Origin: a virus
DNA: 64,000 nt
IMG/VR virus record: IMGVR_UViG_3300026097_000010
Coordinates: 64,001-128,000 of that record
Reading direction: 5' to 3' (one strand)
A program made the position numbers and the translations under genes. The notes under the pieces are model-generated. The model ran no database searches. It had not been told where the DNA came from and saw only the letters and a list, made by a program, of their open reading frames with translations. Shown piece after piece: positions 14,293 to 28,987 of the stretch (the stretch's first letter is position 1; every line of letters begins with the position of its first letter).

Positions 14293-14730
14293 TTACTTCT
14301 GTACGTCGATATTTGCTATAGTGAATCCGTCGCCTAAAATTGAATTATCTTTTCCTGGATTTTCCGATAACTGGTAAGTTAGATGAATCATATTGCTAGG
14401 GTCATCATCTGGCTGGCAACTAACCGTTCTGTTATGCAACTTAGTTACATAGTAAACAGCAGAGTCATTTAATGCTCCGTCTGCATCATCGTCAATTGTT
14501 ACAGCAATGCAAAATTCACCAACTCCCGGAGTTGCTTTTCCTACCAGTGAAAGTTTTTCACTGTTTTCACTATTTTTTACAATAAATTGAAGAGAGCTTC
14601 GTTGGCGATCAATGTAAAGAGGATCAGCAATGTCTCCTGATATTACTCCTCCGGTACTAAATCTTGCTGAAGTTACTTCGATTTTAGCCGTACCTTGACC
14701 AATTTTTCTTTCTTGAATAGGGCGTCCCAT
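14293..14730 (-). CDS. Hypothetical virion protein (145 aa), possible head decoration
   Basis: First gene after the capsid terminator, with its own late promoter and strong AAGGAG SD. Function inferred from position only. Confidence 0.6.
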   Translation of the reverse strand: MGRPIQERKIGQGTAKIEVTSARFSTGGVISGDIADPLYIDRQRSSLQFIVKNSENSEKLSLVGKATPGVGEFCIAVTIDDDADGALNDSAVYYVTKLHNRTVSCQPDDDPSNMIHLTYQLSENPGKDNSILGDGFTIANIDVQK

Positions 14731-14749
14731 TTGTTTTCTCCTTTTTTAG

Positions 14750-14824
14750 AAGTCCGATGCAGGTTCTAGCTGCTACGCTGTGGGTACAGCATAAGTCCAC
14801 CTTTTAGGGGCACACTATCTGACA
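14750..14824 (-). promoter_or_regulatory. Structured 5' leader (four-way-junction-like cis RNA) of the 145-aa gene
   Basis: Minus strand: GUCAGAU/AUCGGAC closing stem, CCU-AAA-AGG, UAUGCUGU-ACCC-ACAGCGUA, GCAG-CUAGAAC-CUGC; GGACUU occurs twice. Confidence 0.55.
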
Positions 14825-24957: not shown

Positions 24958-25175
24958 TCCTTACGCAAACCGAGTCTGAAATTAGAGATTTTTCAGAGCG
25001 TTTGGATCAAGATGCCAAGGCAATTAAAAAAGAAGCATTAAAAATGTCTTGGTATATGAGAGGAATGGGCTACTCGGAAGCTATGAATTTATCCTACGAC
25101 GAACGAGAAATAGTATCAGACATTATCAAAGAAAACCTAGAAACAACTAAGAAGTCAGGACTACCGTTCTTTTAA
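24954..25175 (+). CDS. gp51-like small hub assembly protein; possible -1 frameshift extension of the gp26-like ORF
   Basis: WYMRG.MGYSEAMNLSYDEREI motif; ATGA overlap, no clear SD, slippery site upstream. Confidence 0.6.
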   Translation: MILTQTESEIRDFSERLDQDAKAIKKEALKMSWYMRGMGYSEAMNLSYDEREIVSDIIKENLETTKKSGLPFF

Positions 25176-26002
25176 GCGGTAGTCGCTGTTGCTGTCTTCG
25201 GTTTTGGAGTAATCTTAGGTTGTTTTTTACCAACCTGTGAAGTCATATTGGTAAATTTTTGGTTGTAGCCCATTTGCTGTCCTGCTTTTTGACCCGTTGT
25301 TGCTGTACTTGCTGTACTTGATGTAGCATCTTTTGCTGTATTTCCACCTTGAGCAGTTGTGTTCTGTGTTTGATCACCGCCTTGAACATTAATATTAATG
25401 TTGTTAGGCTGTGTTGGAGACTGTTGTTGCTGTTGTTGATCTTGTCCAGAACCTTTTTTAGCGTCTAACCCTGCAATTTCTTTTTCTAGCATTTTTCTAA
25501 TTTGTGCTCTTTGCTGTCCAGTTAATCCTGATAGCATATCCTGAGCTTGTTTGTAATTTGTAGCTCTGTTTGGATCCGGTTCTGGAGTTGGAGTTGGTCC
25601 AGGAGTTGGCGTTGGCGTTGGAGTCGGTCCGGGTGTTGGCGTTGGAGTCGGTCCGGGTGTTGGTGTTGGCTGTGGAGTAACTCCTTGAGTACCACCAGCT
25701 CCGCCACTTGTTCCATCAGCACCATCAGCACCATCAGCACCGTCTTTTCCAGAATCGCCATCACTTCCGCCGTCTAAGCTTGTAGTCTTGTAACCTGCTT
25801 TAACACCTTTAGTAAATGCTTTACCTAACCCTGCTAGACCTCCAATTGCGGCACCAGCACCTTTAGCAACTGTACCTGCGGCTGTGCCAGCACCTTTAAC
25901 TATCTTACCACCAATTTCTTTGGCTTTATCTAGCTTAGGACCTTCTGCCAGATATTCTAGTTCGTTAATTTCAGATTCTGTTAAAAAGTCATTGAATTTC
26001 AT
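25172..26002 (-). CDS. Low-complexity putative internal head protein (276 aa) with Pro-Thr repeats
   Basis: MKFNDFLTESEINE N-terminus; Gly/Ala-rich segment; (PT)n and Qn tracts. Confidence 0.6.
   Translation of the reverse strand: MKFNDFLTESEINELEYLAEGPKLDKAKEIGGKIVKGAGTAAGTVAKGAGAAIGGLAGLGKAFTKGVKAGYKTTSLDGGSDGDSGKDGADGADGADGTSGGAGGTQGVTPQPTPTPGPTPTPTPGPTPTPTPTPGPTPTPEPDPNRATNYKQAQDMLSGLTGQQRAQIRKMLEKEIAGLDAKKGSGQDQQQQQQSPTQPNNININVQGGDQTQNTTAQGGNTAKDATSSTASTATTGQKAGQQMGYNQKFTNMTSQVGKKQPKITPKPKTATATTA
25584..25741 (-). repeat. Coding tandem repeats (PTPTPGPT and DGA units)
   Basis: 24-nt unit GTCCGGGTGTTGGCGTTGGAGTCG and 9-nt unit ACCATCAGC repeated on the plus strand. Confidence 0.8.
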
Positions 26003-27795
26003 GCTGTTGGTCCTGTTGTTTGATATCCACCTTGTTTAATTCCTGCTGGTTGGGTAGCTGGTTTCTTAGCAGGAGCTTTTGTCGTTGTAGAAGATGGTTG
26101 CGATCTACCTAGATATTTTAAAAGTCTACGCTTGTCTTTTGCTGTTAATTTGGCAATATGAGCTTTAACGTCGTTATACGAAAATCCTTGAGCGGCTTTC
26201 TTTCCACCAGCTCCGCCTGTTTGGCCAGTAGGAGATGTTTTTCCTCCAGTAGCACCACCTGTTTGGCTAGCACCACCGTCTTTTGCTTTTGTAGCATTAT
26301 CTTGTTTTGCGTTAGGATCAGTTTGCTTAGGTGCCGCAGGAACTTTCAATTTCATTTGCTTGTATACTGGAGTAATTACTTCGTCGTTAACTCCTTGCTG
26401 ACGTAAAAAGTTTGCCAATTCATTTGAATCTGTAGGCGATCCTGCTTTTTTCCACGCTTTGTTTAGTTTATCTGCGGTAATTTTTGTGGTTAGATTCTTG
26501 CCCATTCGTGAAAAGAAGCCAGGCTTCTTTTCTTTTTGTTCAGGCTCACCTTCGGGTGCTGGCTTAGCATCTTGCTCTGCTTCTGCTTCAGAAAGTATTT
26601 GGATTCTTTCCAGTGTGTTAAAGACCAAATAAACCTGTCCTTCACTGAGTTTAGACTTGTAAAACTCTGTGCTTTCTTTTTTAGATTCACCGTCTTGCAC
26701 AGGTTCACCTTCAACTTTAACATCTTTGCTGTCAAATTTACCTTGTATTGAACCTTGTGCTAGTGCCGCGACAGCATCGTTAACTTTAGTCATTCCTTGT
26801 AAAAACGCATCGTTCTGTTGAGCAACTTCTTTTGCTACAGCATTAATAGCATTTACATTGTCTAAGTATTCGTTAACATCGAACGAATCAGCAAACATTG
26901 ATATTTCTCTAAATGCATCTACATCACCTGCGGCTGCTTTTTCTACAAGAGCCTGTAGTTCAGGCACCATGTCTTCAGGAACGAATATACCAAGGATTGT
27001 GTCTTTAAATGAATAACCCGGCATTTCAAGTGTGTGGGTAAGATTTACATCTACCTTGGCTATTCCAGGTGCTTTATCGTACGGAATAACATCGGCTCTG
27101 ATACCTTCTAGCCAATCGCCAATTCCTTCCAGTGCCCAACCTGCCATAGCACCATATGCAGCAGTCTTTACTGACTTACCAACGGCTGTGGATAGTTTTT
27201 CACCTTTGAGCAATTCATTGGCCGATCTTAAAAAGAAACCAGCGGCAGCACCACCTGCTGGTCCAGCGGCAAACGCCGCGGCAGCGGTTAAAATACCAAC
27301 TGCTAGACTTGCTTTTCCTGGATTGGCTTTTGCCCAATCAGAAACTGACTTGATTCTTTTTGCTACTTCGGGATTATCTGTGGAAATCTTTTTCTTTAGT
27401 TCTTCGAACTTGGCATCTATATTTTTAATAGGACCAGCATTTTGAACCATTCTGCCTAGCTCATTGATTTTATCGTCAATGGCTGATACAACTTTACCTG
27501 GTAATTTAGCGGCATCTACGCCTTTTCCTACCATGGTTCTGTTACTGCCACTTGCTGTAGCACCTTGCTCTACATTGCCAAATATCTGTTGGATTTGATC
27601 AGCTGATAATGTTGCTTCCATTAATCGCAATTCAGCAATAAGAGGTTCAAACCCATTATAAAATTCATAAACAACTTTGCGTTGCTTGGTTGTAAGTCCA
27701 CTCATTGATTCGATAAGAATCTTACGAGATTCATACATCTGTGCTTCAACAAGAGACTGTCGTGATTCTACAATTGTAACTTCATTTAGTTTCAT
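25999..27795 (-). CDS. Putative internal head/ejection protein (598 aa)
   Basis: MKLNEVTIVES N-terminus, hydrophobic SLAVGILTAAAAFAAGPAGGAAAGFF segment, late promoter upstream. Confidence 0.55.
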   Translation of the reverse strand: MKLNEVTIVESRQSLVEAQMYESRKILIESMSGLTTKQRKVVYEFYNGFEPLIAELRLMEATLSADQIQQIFGNVEQGATASGSNRTMVGKGVDAAKLPGKVVSAIDDKINELGRMVQNAGPIKNIDAKFEELKKKISTDNPEVAKRIKSVSDWAKANPGKASLAVGILTAAAAFAAGPAGGAAAGFFLRSANELLKGEKLSTAVGKSVKTAAYGAMAGWALEGIGDWLEGIRADVIPYDKAPGIAKVDVNLTHTLEMPGYSFKDTILGIFVPEDMVPELQALVEKAAAGDVDAFREISMFADSFDVNEYLDNVNAINAVAKEVAQQNDAFLQGMTKVNDAVAALAQGSIQGKFDSKDVKVEGEPVQDGESKKESTEFYKSKLSEGQVYLVFNTLERIQILSEAEAEQDAKPAPEGEPEQKEKKPGFFSRMGKNLTTKITADKLNKAWKKAGSPTDSNELANFLRQQGVNDEVITPVYKQMKLKVPAAPKQTDPNAKQDNATKAKDGGASQTGGATGGKTSPTGQTGGAGGKKAAQGFSYNDVKAHIAKLTAKDKRRLLKYLGRSQPSSTTTKAPAKKPATQPAGIKQGGYQTTGPTA

Positions 27796-27822: not shown

Positions 27823-27829
27823 TATTTAT
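27823..27829 (-). promoter_or_regulatory. Late promoter box ATAAATA
   Basis: About 28 nt upstream of ATG 27795. Confidence 0.7.
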
Positions 27830-27844
27830 CGCATATTAACTAGA

Positions 27845-28328
27845 GAACGATCTAAAGATCGTTTGCGTTATCGCTTACGCTCAACGCATTTTTTTTAATT
27901 ATTAACTGCGAAGCAGTTTTAGTATTATCTAGATTGTTCGGTCATAAAGAGCCCGTTGCGGGGCTCAATATTTTCTGCACATTATCTGAGTTGCACAGTC
28001 ATAACAGCATTAGGATTATATGTATTGCTACACTCGCAGGCGGTTGGCCGATACCTGCTCATCCCGTTCGAGTTTCTAGTTGTCCAACGGCAGCCATGTA
28101 TATAAAATGCTGTCTTTTATACATGACCTGGGTTTGTTCCCATCCTTAGCCTATAAAATTTTGTTCTAAACGCATCAAACTGGTTAATTAGGCATATCCA
28201 GTCATCATCATCTGGTAGTGATACGAGTCTCCGCCGTCAAACGAATATTCAATTCCCTGCGCAACTCTGGTGCCAGGTGTAAGTCCACTATAACTGCGCC
28301 AGTGGAGGCTTAATTGACGGTGTTTTGC
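27845..28328 (-). ncRNA. Large structured non-coding RNA of unknown class downstream of the GIY-YIG gene
   Basis: Only long intergenic region in the window; more than 12 stems, several with G-U pairs and GNRA loops only on the minus strand, plus 2-3 loop-loop/pseudoknot complementarities. Confidence 0.7.
27864..27896 (+). terminator. Terminator-like hairpin with T8 on the plus (antisense) strand
   Basis: TGCGTT...AACGCA followed by TTTTTTTT; no plus-strand gene directly upstream. Confidence 0.4.
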
Positions 28329-28754
28329 CTATAATTTTTTAAGATGTTCTTTAAGAATGTTTGAACTGCCTACACGCACATTGATAATACCGTTATAGTA
28401 TTCATCCGTTTCTAGTACACGCCTGTCGAATTGCTCTTTAGCCTCTAGATAACTTAATACGCCTCTGCTAGGACAAAAATGAAGGATTTCTCTTGTGAAT
28501 TTGTCTGGGCCTAATGCCTTTACATCAGCATTTAGATGATCTGAAGATCCCCAATAGTCTCTCCAGTCACTTTCTACTGTGCTACGCCTTTTATTTTTTC
28601 TGCCTTTGAGTGGTGGTCTAGTTTTTTTGAATCGTGCTAGTTTTTTGCCTATGTATTTTTTATTGTTAGTAATATTTGTGATCAGATAGACAAAGCCTTC
28701 GCAATCTTTAGGAAGTTCTTGTACTATTTGACCGTTGTAAGTCCACTCTGACAT
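28329..28754 (-). CDS. Seg-type GIY-YIG endonuclease, catalytic domain only (141 aa)
   Basis: GFVYLITN..NKKYIGKK, YWGSS, FTREILHFC, LSYLE (catalytic Glu) and YYN; basic insert RFKKTRPPLKGRKNKRR; no C-terminal DNA-binding domain. Confidence 0.85.
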   Translation of the reverse strand: MSEWTYNGQIVQELPKDCEGFVYLITNITNNKKYIGKKLARFKKTRPPLKGRKNKRRSTVESDWRDYWGSSDHLNADVKALGPDKFTREILHFCPSRGVLSYLEAKEQFDRRVLETDEYYNGIINVRVGSSNILKEHLKKL

Positions 28755-28759
28755 CAGAC

Positions 28760-28987
28760 TTACTTAGTTTTCTTCGGTCTCCCTACCATGCCTTTTCTGG
28801 CGGCCTTTCGCGCTTCACGCTTTGCTTGTATTTCTTTGCGCCTCTCGGAAGCATGGTTTCTAATTTCACTCAGCCAAAAACGTGCTTTAATACCTGCTTC
28901 GTCAGAGCCTTTGTATTCAAAGTTTGTTTGCCATTTGAAGTATTCTTGGAATGCTTCAATCATTTTATCGTGACTGTCAGTGGCCAT
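28760..28987 (-). CDS. Small basic protein, Hc1 (histone H1-like) family-like
   Basis: KGSDEAGIKAR..LSEI....ERRKEI resembles the Hc1 KGNKAAGTRAR..E.RK core; basic tail ending GRPKK. Confidence 0.55.
   Translation of the reverse strand: MATDSHDKMIEAFQEYFKWQTNFEYKGSDEAGIKARFWLSEIRNHASERRKEIQAKREARKAARKGMVGRPKKTK

Follow-up and report, generated by a model that had tools for sequence, protein, structure and literature searches.

The question raised by this locus is what occupies a non-coding gap of about 530 nt behind a small GIY-YIG nuclease gene of an uncultured giant phage from an aquatic setting, and whether the gap and the nuclease belong together. The window (the whole 64,000-nt stretch of DNA analysed) is part of a 152-kb viral record that is ~42% complete, and the gp47 of this phage is nearest to those of the jumbo phages PA5oct/Paride and Phosso (50-54%). 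On the minus strand, the genes run in the order late sigma factor, gp47, gp46, a 75-aa basic ORF, a 141-aa ORF, a gap of 534 nt and a 598-aa ORF (Table 1). An earlier sequence-only reading had noted this gap, which does extend from the stop of the 141-aa ORF (28329-28754) to the next gene, and had placed in it a pseudoknotted RNA that may guide or scaffold the nuclease, or be otherwise linked to recombination or replication.

Table 1. Features at the nuclease-RNA locus (window coordinates)
Feature	Position	Strand	Description
Hc1-like ORF	28760..28987	-	Small, basic, 75 aa; usual upstream neighbour under either nuclease
Possible late-promoter variant	28761..28766	-	TAAGTA, 12 nt before the GIY-YIG start
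SegE-type stand-alone GIY-YIG nuclease	28329..28754	-	141 aa; PF19835, E 2e-35; phrog_447
5' domain, Rfam RF01718 (Polynucleobacter-1)	28168..28310	-	95.7 bits, E 2e-19
Double-pseudoknot core	28003..28153	-	Hairpin 28128-28092, both pseudoknots and helix 28064-61/28016-13; covariation
Variable-length GNRA hairpin	28033-28020	-	Within the core
Twin box 1	27981..28003	-	UGAC, ~10 nt, then AGAUAAU at 27987-27981; identity covariation with box 2
Hairpin between boxes	27949..27966	-	97% paired
Twin box 2	27924..27946	-	Layout of box 1, word at 27930-27924
Tail	27846..27918		Three short hairpins around an AT-rich spacer; loops TTC (= GAA on the other strand), tandem GA mismatches, TTTA
Late promoter of the 598-aa ORF	27823..27828	-	TAAATA; sets the 3' limit of the element

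Gene order and promoters

TAAATA stands before many structural genes of the window phage, often at -11. The related TAARTA is found at -10 to -12 upstream of the nuclease in 62 of 172 distinct sequences, and at the same distance before several other genes in the window genome. Judged by its position, TAAGTA could yield a leaderless late transcript that enters the RNA, but the same letters also encode the Lys-stop that ends the preceding gene, which confounds this reading. The 75-aa ORF falls in no Pfam or PHROG family, the Hc1 label being that of the sequence-only reading.

The N-terminus of the downstream 598-aa ORF resembles the capsid-targeting sequence of T4. Two ORFs downstream of the element (25999-27795 and 25172-26002, minus strand) start with M-K-x-x-E/D, like that sequence, and have no PHROG and no significant Pfam family. 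Elsewhere in the window, an Rfam freshwater-2 RNA (RF02980, 73.9 bits; 14728-14812, minus strand) ends at a start codon. A search of the window genome for Endonuclease VII gave no match, in a genome that is 42% complete and with no positive control detected.

A structured RNA larger than Polynucleobacter-1

Comparative evidence indicates that the gap holds a real structured RNA, some 400 nt long (28328-27924, minus strand), whose helices covary strongly and which has two pseudoknots that covary as well. The body (27925-28325) folds beyond shuffled sequences on the minus strand alone (z -2.5, against -0.6 on the other strand), and its hairpin loops across the family are GNRA in 47 cases against 3 for the complement, which suggests that the body acts as RNA on the nuclease strand, as had been proposed. 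Covariation was scored by a G-test with average-product correction in 60 non-redundant homologues of the window copy, whose mean identity is 65%; the null re-deals substitutions along the tree. Twenty-two column pairs exceeded all null values; 18 of the 22 are Watson-Crick helix pairs, including the pseudoknot pair 28109-28008.

Many of the pairs named in the sequence-only reading covary in this set (E < 0.05). When the named structure is laid over 46 sequences of two classes, 83% of its cells are paired and 26 of its 36 pairs have changed on both sides, with shuffled and slid controls far below. Covariation supports five of the six pairs in the UCCACU/AGUGGA hairpin, the long hairpin 28128/28092 and the GCAGG/CCUGC, CGG/CCG and GAGCCC/GGGCUC stems; CCGUCAA/UUGACGG and CGUAUCA/UGAUGCG gain support from compensatory changes among close relatives, and GACUGG/CCAGUU is 100% paired. 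The pseudoknot drawn between the loop at 28114-28106 and 28011-28003 is upheld, with the hairpin loop pairing with 28010-28004. For GCCUA/UAGGC, three pairs are conserved but scarcely vary. The proposed GCGCAGUU/AGUUGCGC pseudoknot does not hold, being 44% paired and broken in close relatives, and CCGUU/AACGG gives way to a second pseudoknot in which GUUGG (28088-84) pairs with CCAAC (28047-43). A helix overlooked earlier, 28064-61 with 28016-13, is 99-100% paired.

The 5' third of this RNA is already catalogued. A full-length member of RF01718 makes up its first 143 nt (positions 1-141 of the model, 95.7 bits against a gathering cut-off of 37 bits), so the novelty that had been supposed is lost there and stands for the remainder, where no other Rfam score comes near a gathering cut-off. 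That model spans roughly a third of the whole, leaving out the pseudoknot core, the boxes and the tail. RNase P, tmRNA and group I/II introns, which the sequence-only reading had not recognised here, have no Rfam match in the window at E up to 10; for these and for known ribozymes, GOLLD and ROOL, there is no match in the window (E <= 10) or in island copies of the element (E <= 1). According to the 2010 supplement, most Polynucleobacter-1 examples are found downstream of genes resembling PSSM2_218 (Weinberg et al., PMC2864571), and this P-SSM2 locus is a homologue of the 141-aa nuclease ORF. The RNA's 5' third and its link to the nuclease family have thus been known since 2010, and the rest is uncatalogued. 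The passages on the motif propose no function and do not name the gene as GIY-YIG (PMC2864571); in the literature searched, the motif is named in the 2010 paper only.

Eighty loci were gathered by protein and more than 200 by RNA patterns. The family comprises at least five classes that differ in their 5' domain: the RF01718 domain is present in only 4 of 20 sampled loci though most carry the element, the other classes having other 5' domains, and a core covariance model built from two classes also detects the other three (classes B, D and E). Polynucleobacter-1 is the 5' third of one class in a much larger family, members of which are found at a single locus across hundreds of contigs from uncultured jumbo phages. 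The element with a GAGCG-N-AGCGA hairpin occurs in one copy per genome in two complete genomes. Most of the RNA-pattern matches in genome contigs lack a nuclease in their vicinity and were set aside as apparent chance matches. Short AGGCAC-type repeats precede the RNA at one locus (L261), and many copies, the window copy among them (28330-28326), have an AGGCA motif at their 5' end.

Twin boxes and a DNA-type tail

The 3' part of the RNA carries two boxes, each made up across the family of a UGAC-like motif, ~10 nt and a 7-nt word, with one hairpin between them. The search pattern left three word positions free, and at these the two words agree in every one of 101 distinct spans (101/101), in eight variants. 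At 27983 and 27926, 44 sequences have AA and 16 have GG, never mixed (n = 60), and this identity covariation survives the tree null. Such perfect co-change demands a mechanism under any reading of the element. A box C/D kink-turn was considered for the boxes and dropped, the G needed for its sheared pair being A in 44 of the 60 sequences.

The tail beyond the boxes is of another kind. Loops of the form c(GNA)g are stable in DNA and not in RNA. Such loops or their complement are found in 174 of 355 tail hairpins of the family, against 5 of 339 body hairpins, and the window tail as DNA folds equally on both strands (z -3.9 and -3.6). From its sequence, the tail probably behaves as DNA hairpins, not RNA, and would be a single-stranded-DNA signal.

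Copies on Polynucleobacter islands

RF01718 scores above its cut-off in 12 of 121 Polynucleobacter genomes. Thirteen full island copies have the core, the boxes and the tail, and no nuclease. The islands, 6-8 kb long, carry an integrase, a small tyrosine recombinase, a gp44 clamp-loader-like ATPase (AAA), two unannotated ORFs and a DUF6641 gene that is divergent from the RNA; an ORF whose N-terminus resembles those of the phage proteins (capsid-targeting-like) is often present as well. No Rep or primase was recognised among the conserved island ORFs scanned. TAAATA lies 19-53 nt upstream of the RNA in 13 of 13 island copies, and the words in the island boxes are not those of the phages sampled.

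DUF6641, on which the literature search returned nothing relevant, occurs in 118 of 241 Polynucleobacter genomes (species), often in several copies. TAAATA stands at the same distance in 28 of 30 sampled DUF6641 loci, and the slot is occupied by a 150-180 aa ORF in 16 of the 30, by an RNA-type module with a tail in 10 (three kinds, several with visible twin boxes) and by an HUH Rep-like ORF in one. A targeted search yielded 14 HUH Rep-like loci, all divergent from DUF6641 and ten with TAAATA at -11. By published motif definitions (PMC5714925), the HUH motif is present at 14 of these loci and W-x-x-Y-x-x-K at 13; H109, H111, W153, Y156 and K159 are invariant in 14 aligned Rep-like members, nine of which are matched by Pfam REP_ORF2-G2P (best E 5e-7). 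The predicted structure of the commonest occupant gives generic beta-barrel matches only (best Z 5.9), with no Atlas match above 0.79, and the slot thus does not appear to serve replication purely.

These DUF6641 islands, on Polynucleobacter chromosomes (L435-L481), are probably a minimal phage-satellite family with a TAAATA-driven, swappable slot. Like the phage satellites PICI, PLE and PICMI, they are small and integrase-bearing, often lie at tRNA genes and have a phage-type late promoter. The usual module of those satellites is a primase-Rep, whereas the putative satellites here, read from sequence alone, carry the RNA module or a small HUH Rep. A further structured non-coding slot module, behind a 100-120 aa ORF, is seen at L439 (about 700-1080), L445, L451 and L457, with the same tail and a different body, and with twin boxes in L445 and L451. 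The 150-180 aa beta-barrel slot protein (L458:656-1189, minus strand; alignment A5) is a candidate phage-induced effector. One contig of a Polynucleobacter assembly (L365, G122:C80) has a phage-type locus with gp46, GIY-YIG and the RNA, and may be a mis-binned phage or else point to the host of the freshwater members. The core model, which also scores island copies poorly, found none in 150 Burkholderiaceae genomes, and blastn of an island copy against plasmids gave no match.

A possible RNA-primed replication origin

The reading that we prefer, tentatively and with somewhat less than even confidence, is that the element is an RNA-primed replication-origin module of jumbo phages, resembling ColE1 RNA II, that satellites have borrowed. 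It is suggested by the joining of a folded RNA to hairpins of the single-stranded-DNA type, in a single-copy element that lies beside recombination and replication genes, is borrowed whole by islands with no recognised initiator and alternates there with a Rep-like gene. The element usually closes a gp47-gp46-Hc1-nuclease operon, the RNA-type body being followed by the DNA-type tail. The link to replication or recombination raised in the sequence-only reading is plausible.

Transcription of the body by RNA polymerase would start at the operon promoter or at a late promoter of the TAAATA type, and the folded RNA would remain on its template, or re-invade it, near the twin boxes, as ColE1 RNA II does. 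The processed 3' end of the RNA would prime leading-strand synthesis, and GNA-loop hairpins would form in the unwound tail and serve to load lagging-strand or helicase proteins. One dimeric protein may bind both boxes as its two sites; alternatively, the upstream copy, as RNA, could pair with the downstream copy in the DNA, on its template strand. Polynucleobacter islands, as probable satellites, would borrow the module and replicate once a late sigma factor of the phage activates their TAAATA promoter, and sister islands would use an HUH Rep in place of the RNA module.

The systems for comparison are ColE1 RNA II, the primer RNAs of marine MRB plasmids with their downstream primosome signals, and the R-loop origins of T4. 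As in ColE1 RNA II and the MRB primer RNAs, a folded RNA of several hundred nucleotides is followed by predicted single-stranded-DNA hairpin signals, and, as in ColE1-type systems, no initiator gene is recognised on the islands. The element has no sequence or Rfam similarity to the ColE1, MRB or T4 R-loop origins, and differs from ColE1 in its twin boxes, double pseudoknot and late-promoter control; its priming role is putative.

An origin would account for a body that is strand-asymmetric (GNRA 47 vs 3) next to a tail that is symmetric and has c(GNA)g loops, and for the single copy in two complete genomes. It would also account for the full copies, tail included, on 6-8 kb integrase islands that have a clamp-loader-like AAA but no nuclease, and no recognised Rep or primase among the conserved ORFs scanned, for TAAATA upstream of all 13 of them, and for the HUH Rep-like ORF that sister DUF6641 islands carry in the same slot under the same promoter. 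In the phages, the mutual exclusion of GIY-YIG and RusA-like genes in five genomes is consistent with it, as is a ~1-kb spacer with a similar-looking tail between the resolvase and RNase HI genes of Phosso. The commonest slot occupant (16/30), however, is an un-Rep-like beta-barrel, so that the slot may serve more generally for payloads induced by the phage. The two unannotated conserved island ORFs could include the real initiator. Further objections are the difference between island and sampled phage box words, the failure of the RNA models to match the spacers of Phosso and PA5oct, and an RNA more ornate than a primer requires. The lack of a GC-skew switch at the element in three genomes is a weak objection, since skew follows gene direction.

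More doubtful is the fuller version of this proposal, that a widespread aquatic jumbo-phage clade starts replication with a 400-nt, doubly pseudoknotted primer RNA, locked onto its template by the co-evolving boxes, which hands over to the GNA-hairpin tail, and that a family of minimal satellites hijacks this RNA origin under a late promoter as a protein-free substitute for Rep. Were the element an origin, large T4-like phages would have an RNA-primed origin that is unusually complex, and the islands would form a satellite family defined by replication with RNA instead of a Rep protein. No function has been assigned to Polynucleobacter-1 in the years since 2010, and the role of large structured RNAs is a long-standing question. 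Copies on islands of a culturable, harmless freshwater bacterium, swapped with a Rep-like gene under the same phage-type promoter, make the function directly testable without culturing the phage.

Rival readings: a trans-acting RNA or a packaging site

A close second to the origin, possible though less likely than not, is a stand-alone trans-acting RNA that binds protein, as a GOLLD- or ROOL-like scaffold or as a protein sponge. The boxes would then bind two copies of one protein, the islands would express a decoy or defence variant, and the tail would be a terminator or processing signal. The ornate double-pseudoknot core shared across classes and the late promoter that the element has of its own where it stands alone speak for such an RNA; the perfect concerted change of both boxes, the non-Rep protein in the island slot and the island words unlike those of phages also fit. 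The DNA-type loops on both tail strands and the alternation with a Rep-like gene are left unexplained by it. The element is like GOLLD, ROOL and other large ornate RNAs in its size, pseudoknots, phage association and lack of an assigned function, and unlike GOLLD and ROOL, to which it has no Rfam match, in its twin boxes and DNA-type tail.

It is unlikely that the element is a pac module, in which late transcription opens the DNA, the tail and boxes recruit terminase, the adjacent resolvase trims branches, and islands copy the module for packaging. Packaging in T4 is coupled to late transcription and to a resolvase, and the late-promoter control, the single copy and the neighbours with capsid-targeting-like N-termini in phage and islands would suit such a role. 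Rep-type and beta-barrel islands, however, would need packaging too and are without the element, and the known pac sites of the T4 type include no folded RNA of 400 nt.

The nuclease as a neighbour of the RNA

The 141-aa protein has both the GIY-YIG fold and the Tyr-Tyr-Glu-Asn catalytic set, with Y23, Y34, G36, E104 and N121 invariant in 80 homologues. Its AF2 model (pLDDT 96.7) has the I-TevI catalytic domain as top match (Z 8.1, rmsd 2.8, 83 aligned) and Slx1 as a weak one (Z 3.0). The basic insert seen in the sequence-only reading is present at residues 41-61 as a predicted beta-hairpin, and is shared by homologues that have no RNA. The protein is like SegE/I-TevI-type GIY-YIG nucleases (PF19835, phrog_447) in fold and catalytic residues. 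Unlike the I-TevI type it has no C-terminal DNA-binding domain, and unlike a homing endonuclease it is ~80% conserved at a fixed position and interchangeable with a RusA-like resolvase (phrog_244). Relatives of the phrog_447 nuclease are present in 796 records; public phage records widely label the family 'NAD synthetase', apparently through an error copied from one record to another.

The proposal that the RNA guides or scaffolds this nuclease as a ribonucleoprotein, in the manner of IscB and omegaRNA, is now very improbable. Its strength was the linkage of the RNA to the nuclease gene across related phages, which is indeed tight: the nuclease is directly upstream in 191 of 206 testable viral copies (RNA-pattern set, not dereplicated), and the basic beta-hairpin and intact catalytic residues agree with it. 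Among 172 loci with enough flank, however, 159 have GIY-YIG, in 10 its place is taken by a RusA-like resolvase (phrog_244), and both are missing from 3; the two genes are mutually exclusive in five genomes (two complete), and nearly identical RNA follows either nuclease at L052 and L196. RusA-type phages and the islands thus have the RNA without GIY-YIG. Conversely, there is no element behind 18 of the 80 closest viral nuclease homologues, nor behind the nuclease in five cultured phages inspected (Melnitz, S-SRM01, P-SSM2, phiM12 and ACP17), all of which keep all or part of the insert; the Melnitz nuclease is 81% identical. The hypervariable guide segment that such a system would need was sought in close relatives and is absent, differences being confined to paired helices and length-variable hairpins. 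As in IscB-omegaRNA (HEARO) and TnpB-reRNA, a small nuclease gene abuts a large structured RNA, but the element has no variable guide, is not mobile, is single-copy at a fixed locus and is separable from a nuclease of a different fold. The literature search returned nothing relevant on RNA-guided GIY-YIG nucleases. An obligate partnership is largely refuted, and the nuclease is a neighbour of the RNA, not its obligate partner. GIY-YIG is a separate DNA nuclease, probably for branched DNA, as its replacement by a RusA-like Holliday-junction resolvase suggests.

Least likely of all is a ribozyme or other catalytic RNA that cleaves itself, splices or processes the operon transcript, for which the nested double pseudoknot with invariant unpaired bases would speak, against the absence of any ribozyme, intron or RNase P family match at E up to 10, of exon context and of a reverse transcriptase in five genomes. 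A retron-like msr-msd was rejected separately, as RVT_1 is absent from five genomes (two complete) in which positive controls were detected.

Spacers in cultured phages

The window element has no blastn match in cultured phages, and HMM and covariance models do not detect it in PA5oct, Phosso, SCTP-2, Vibrio phage 2.275.O or Melnitz. None of the four ncRNAs of PA5oct (PMC7318152) lies within the syntenic spacer, coordinates being assumed comparable. That spacer (L356:7668-9180) has the same position relative to the baseplate-hub gene and does not match the RNA models. In Sinorhizobium phage Phosso, the ~1-kb spacer between the RusA-like resolvase and RNase HI genes (L358:6760-7773) has GNA-type hairpins and a similar-looking tail, likewise with no match to the RNA models. 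Both spacers are 1-1.5 kb long and gene-poor, with divergent TAAATA promoters beside the RusA-like gene, and may be distant counterparts of the element that serve as leads.
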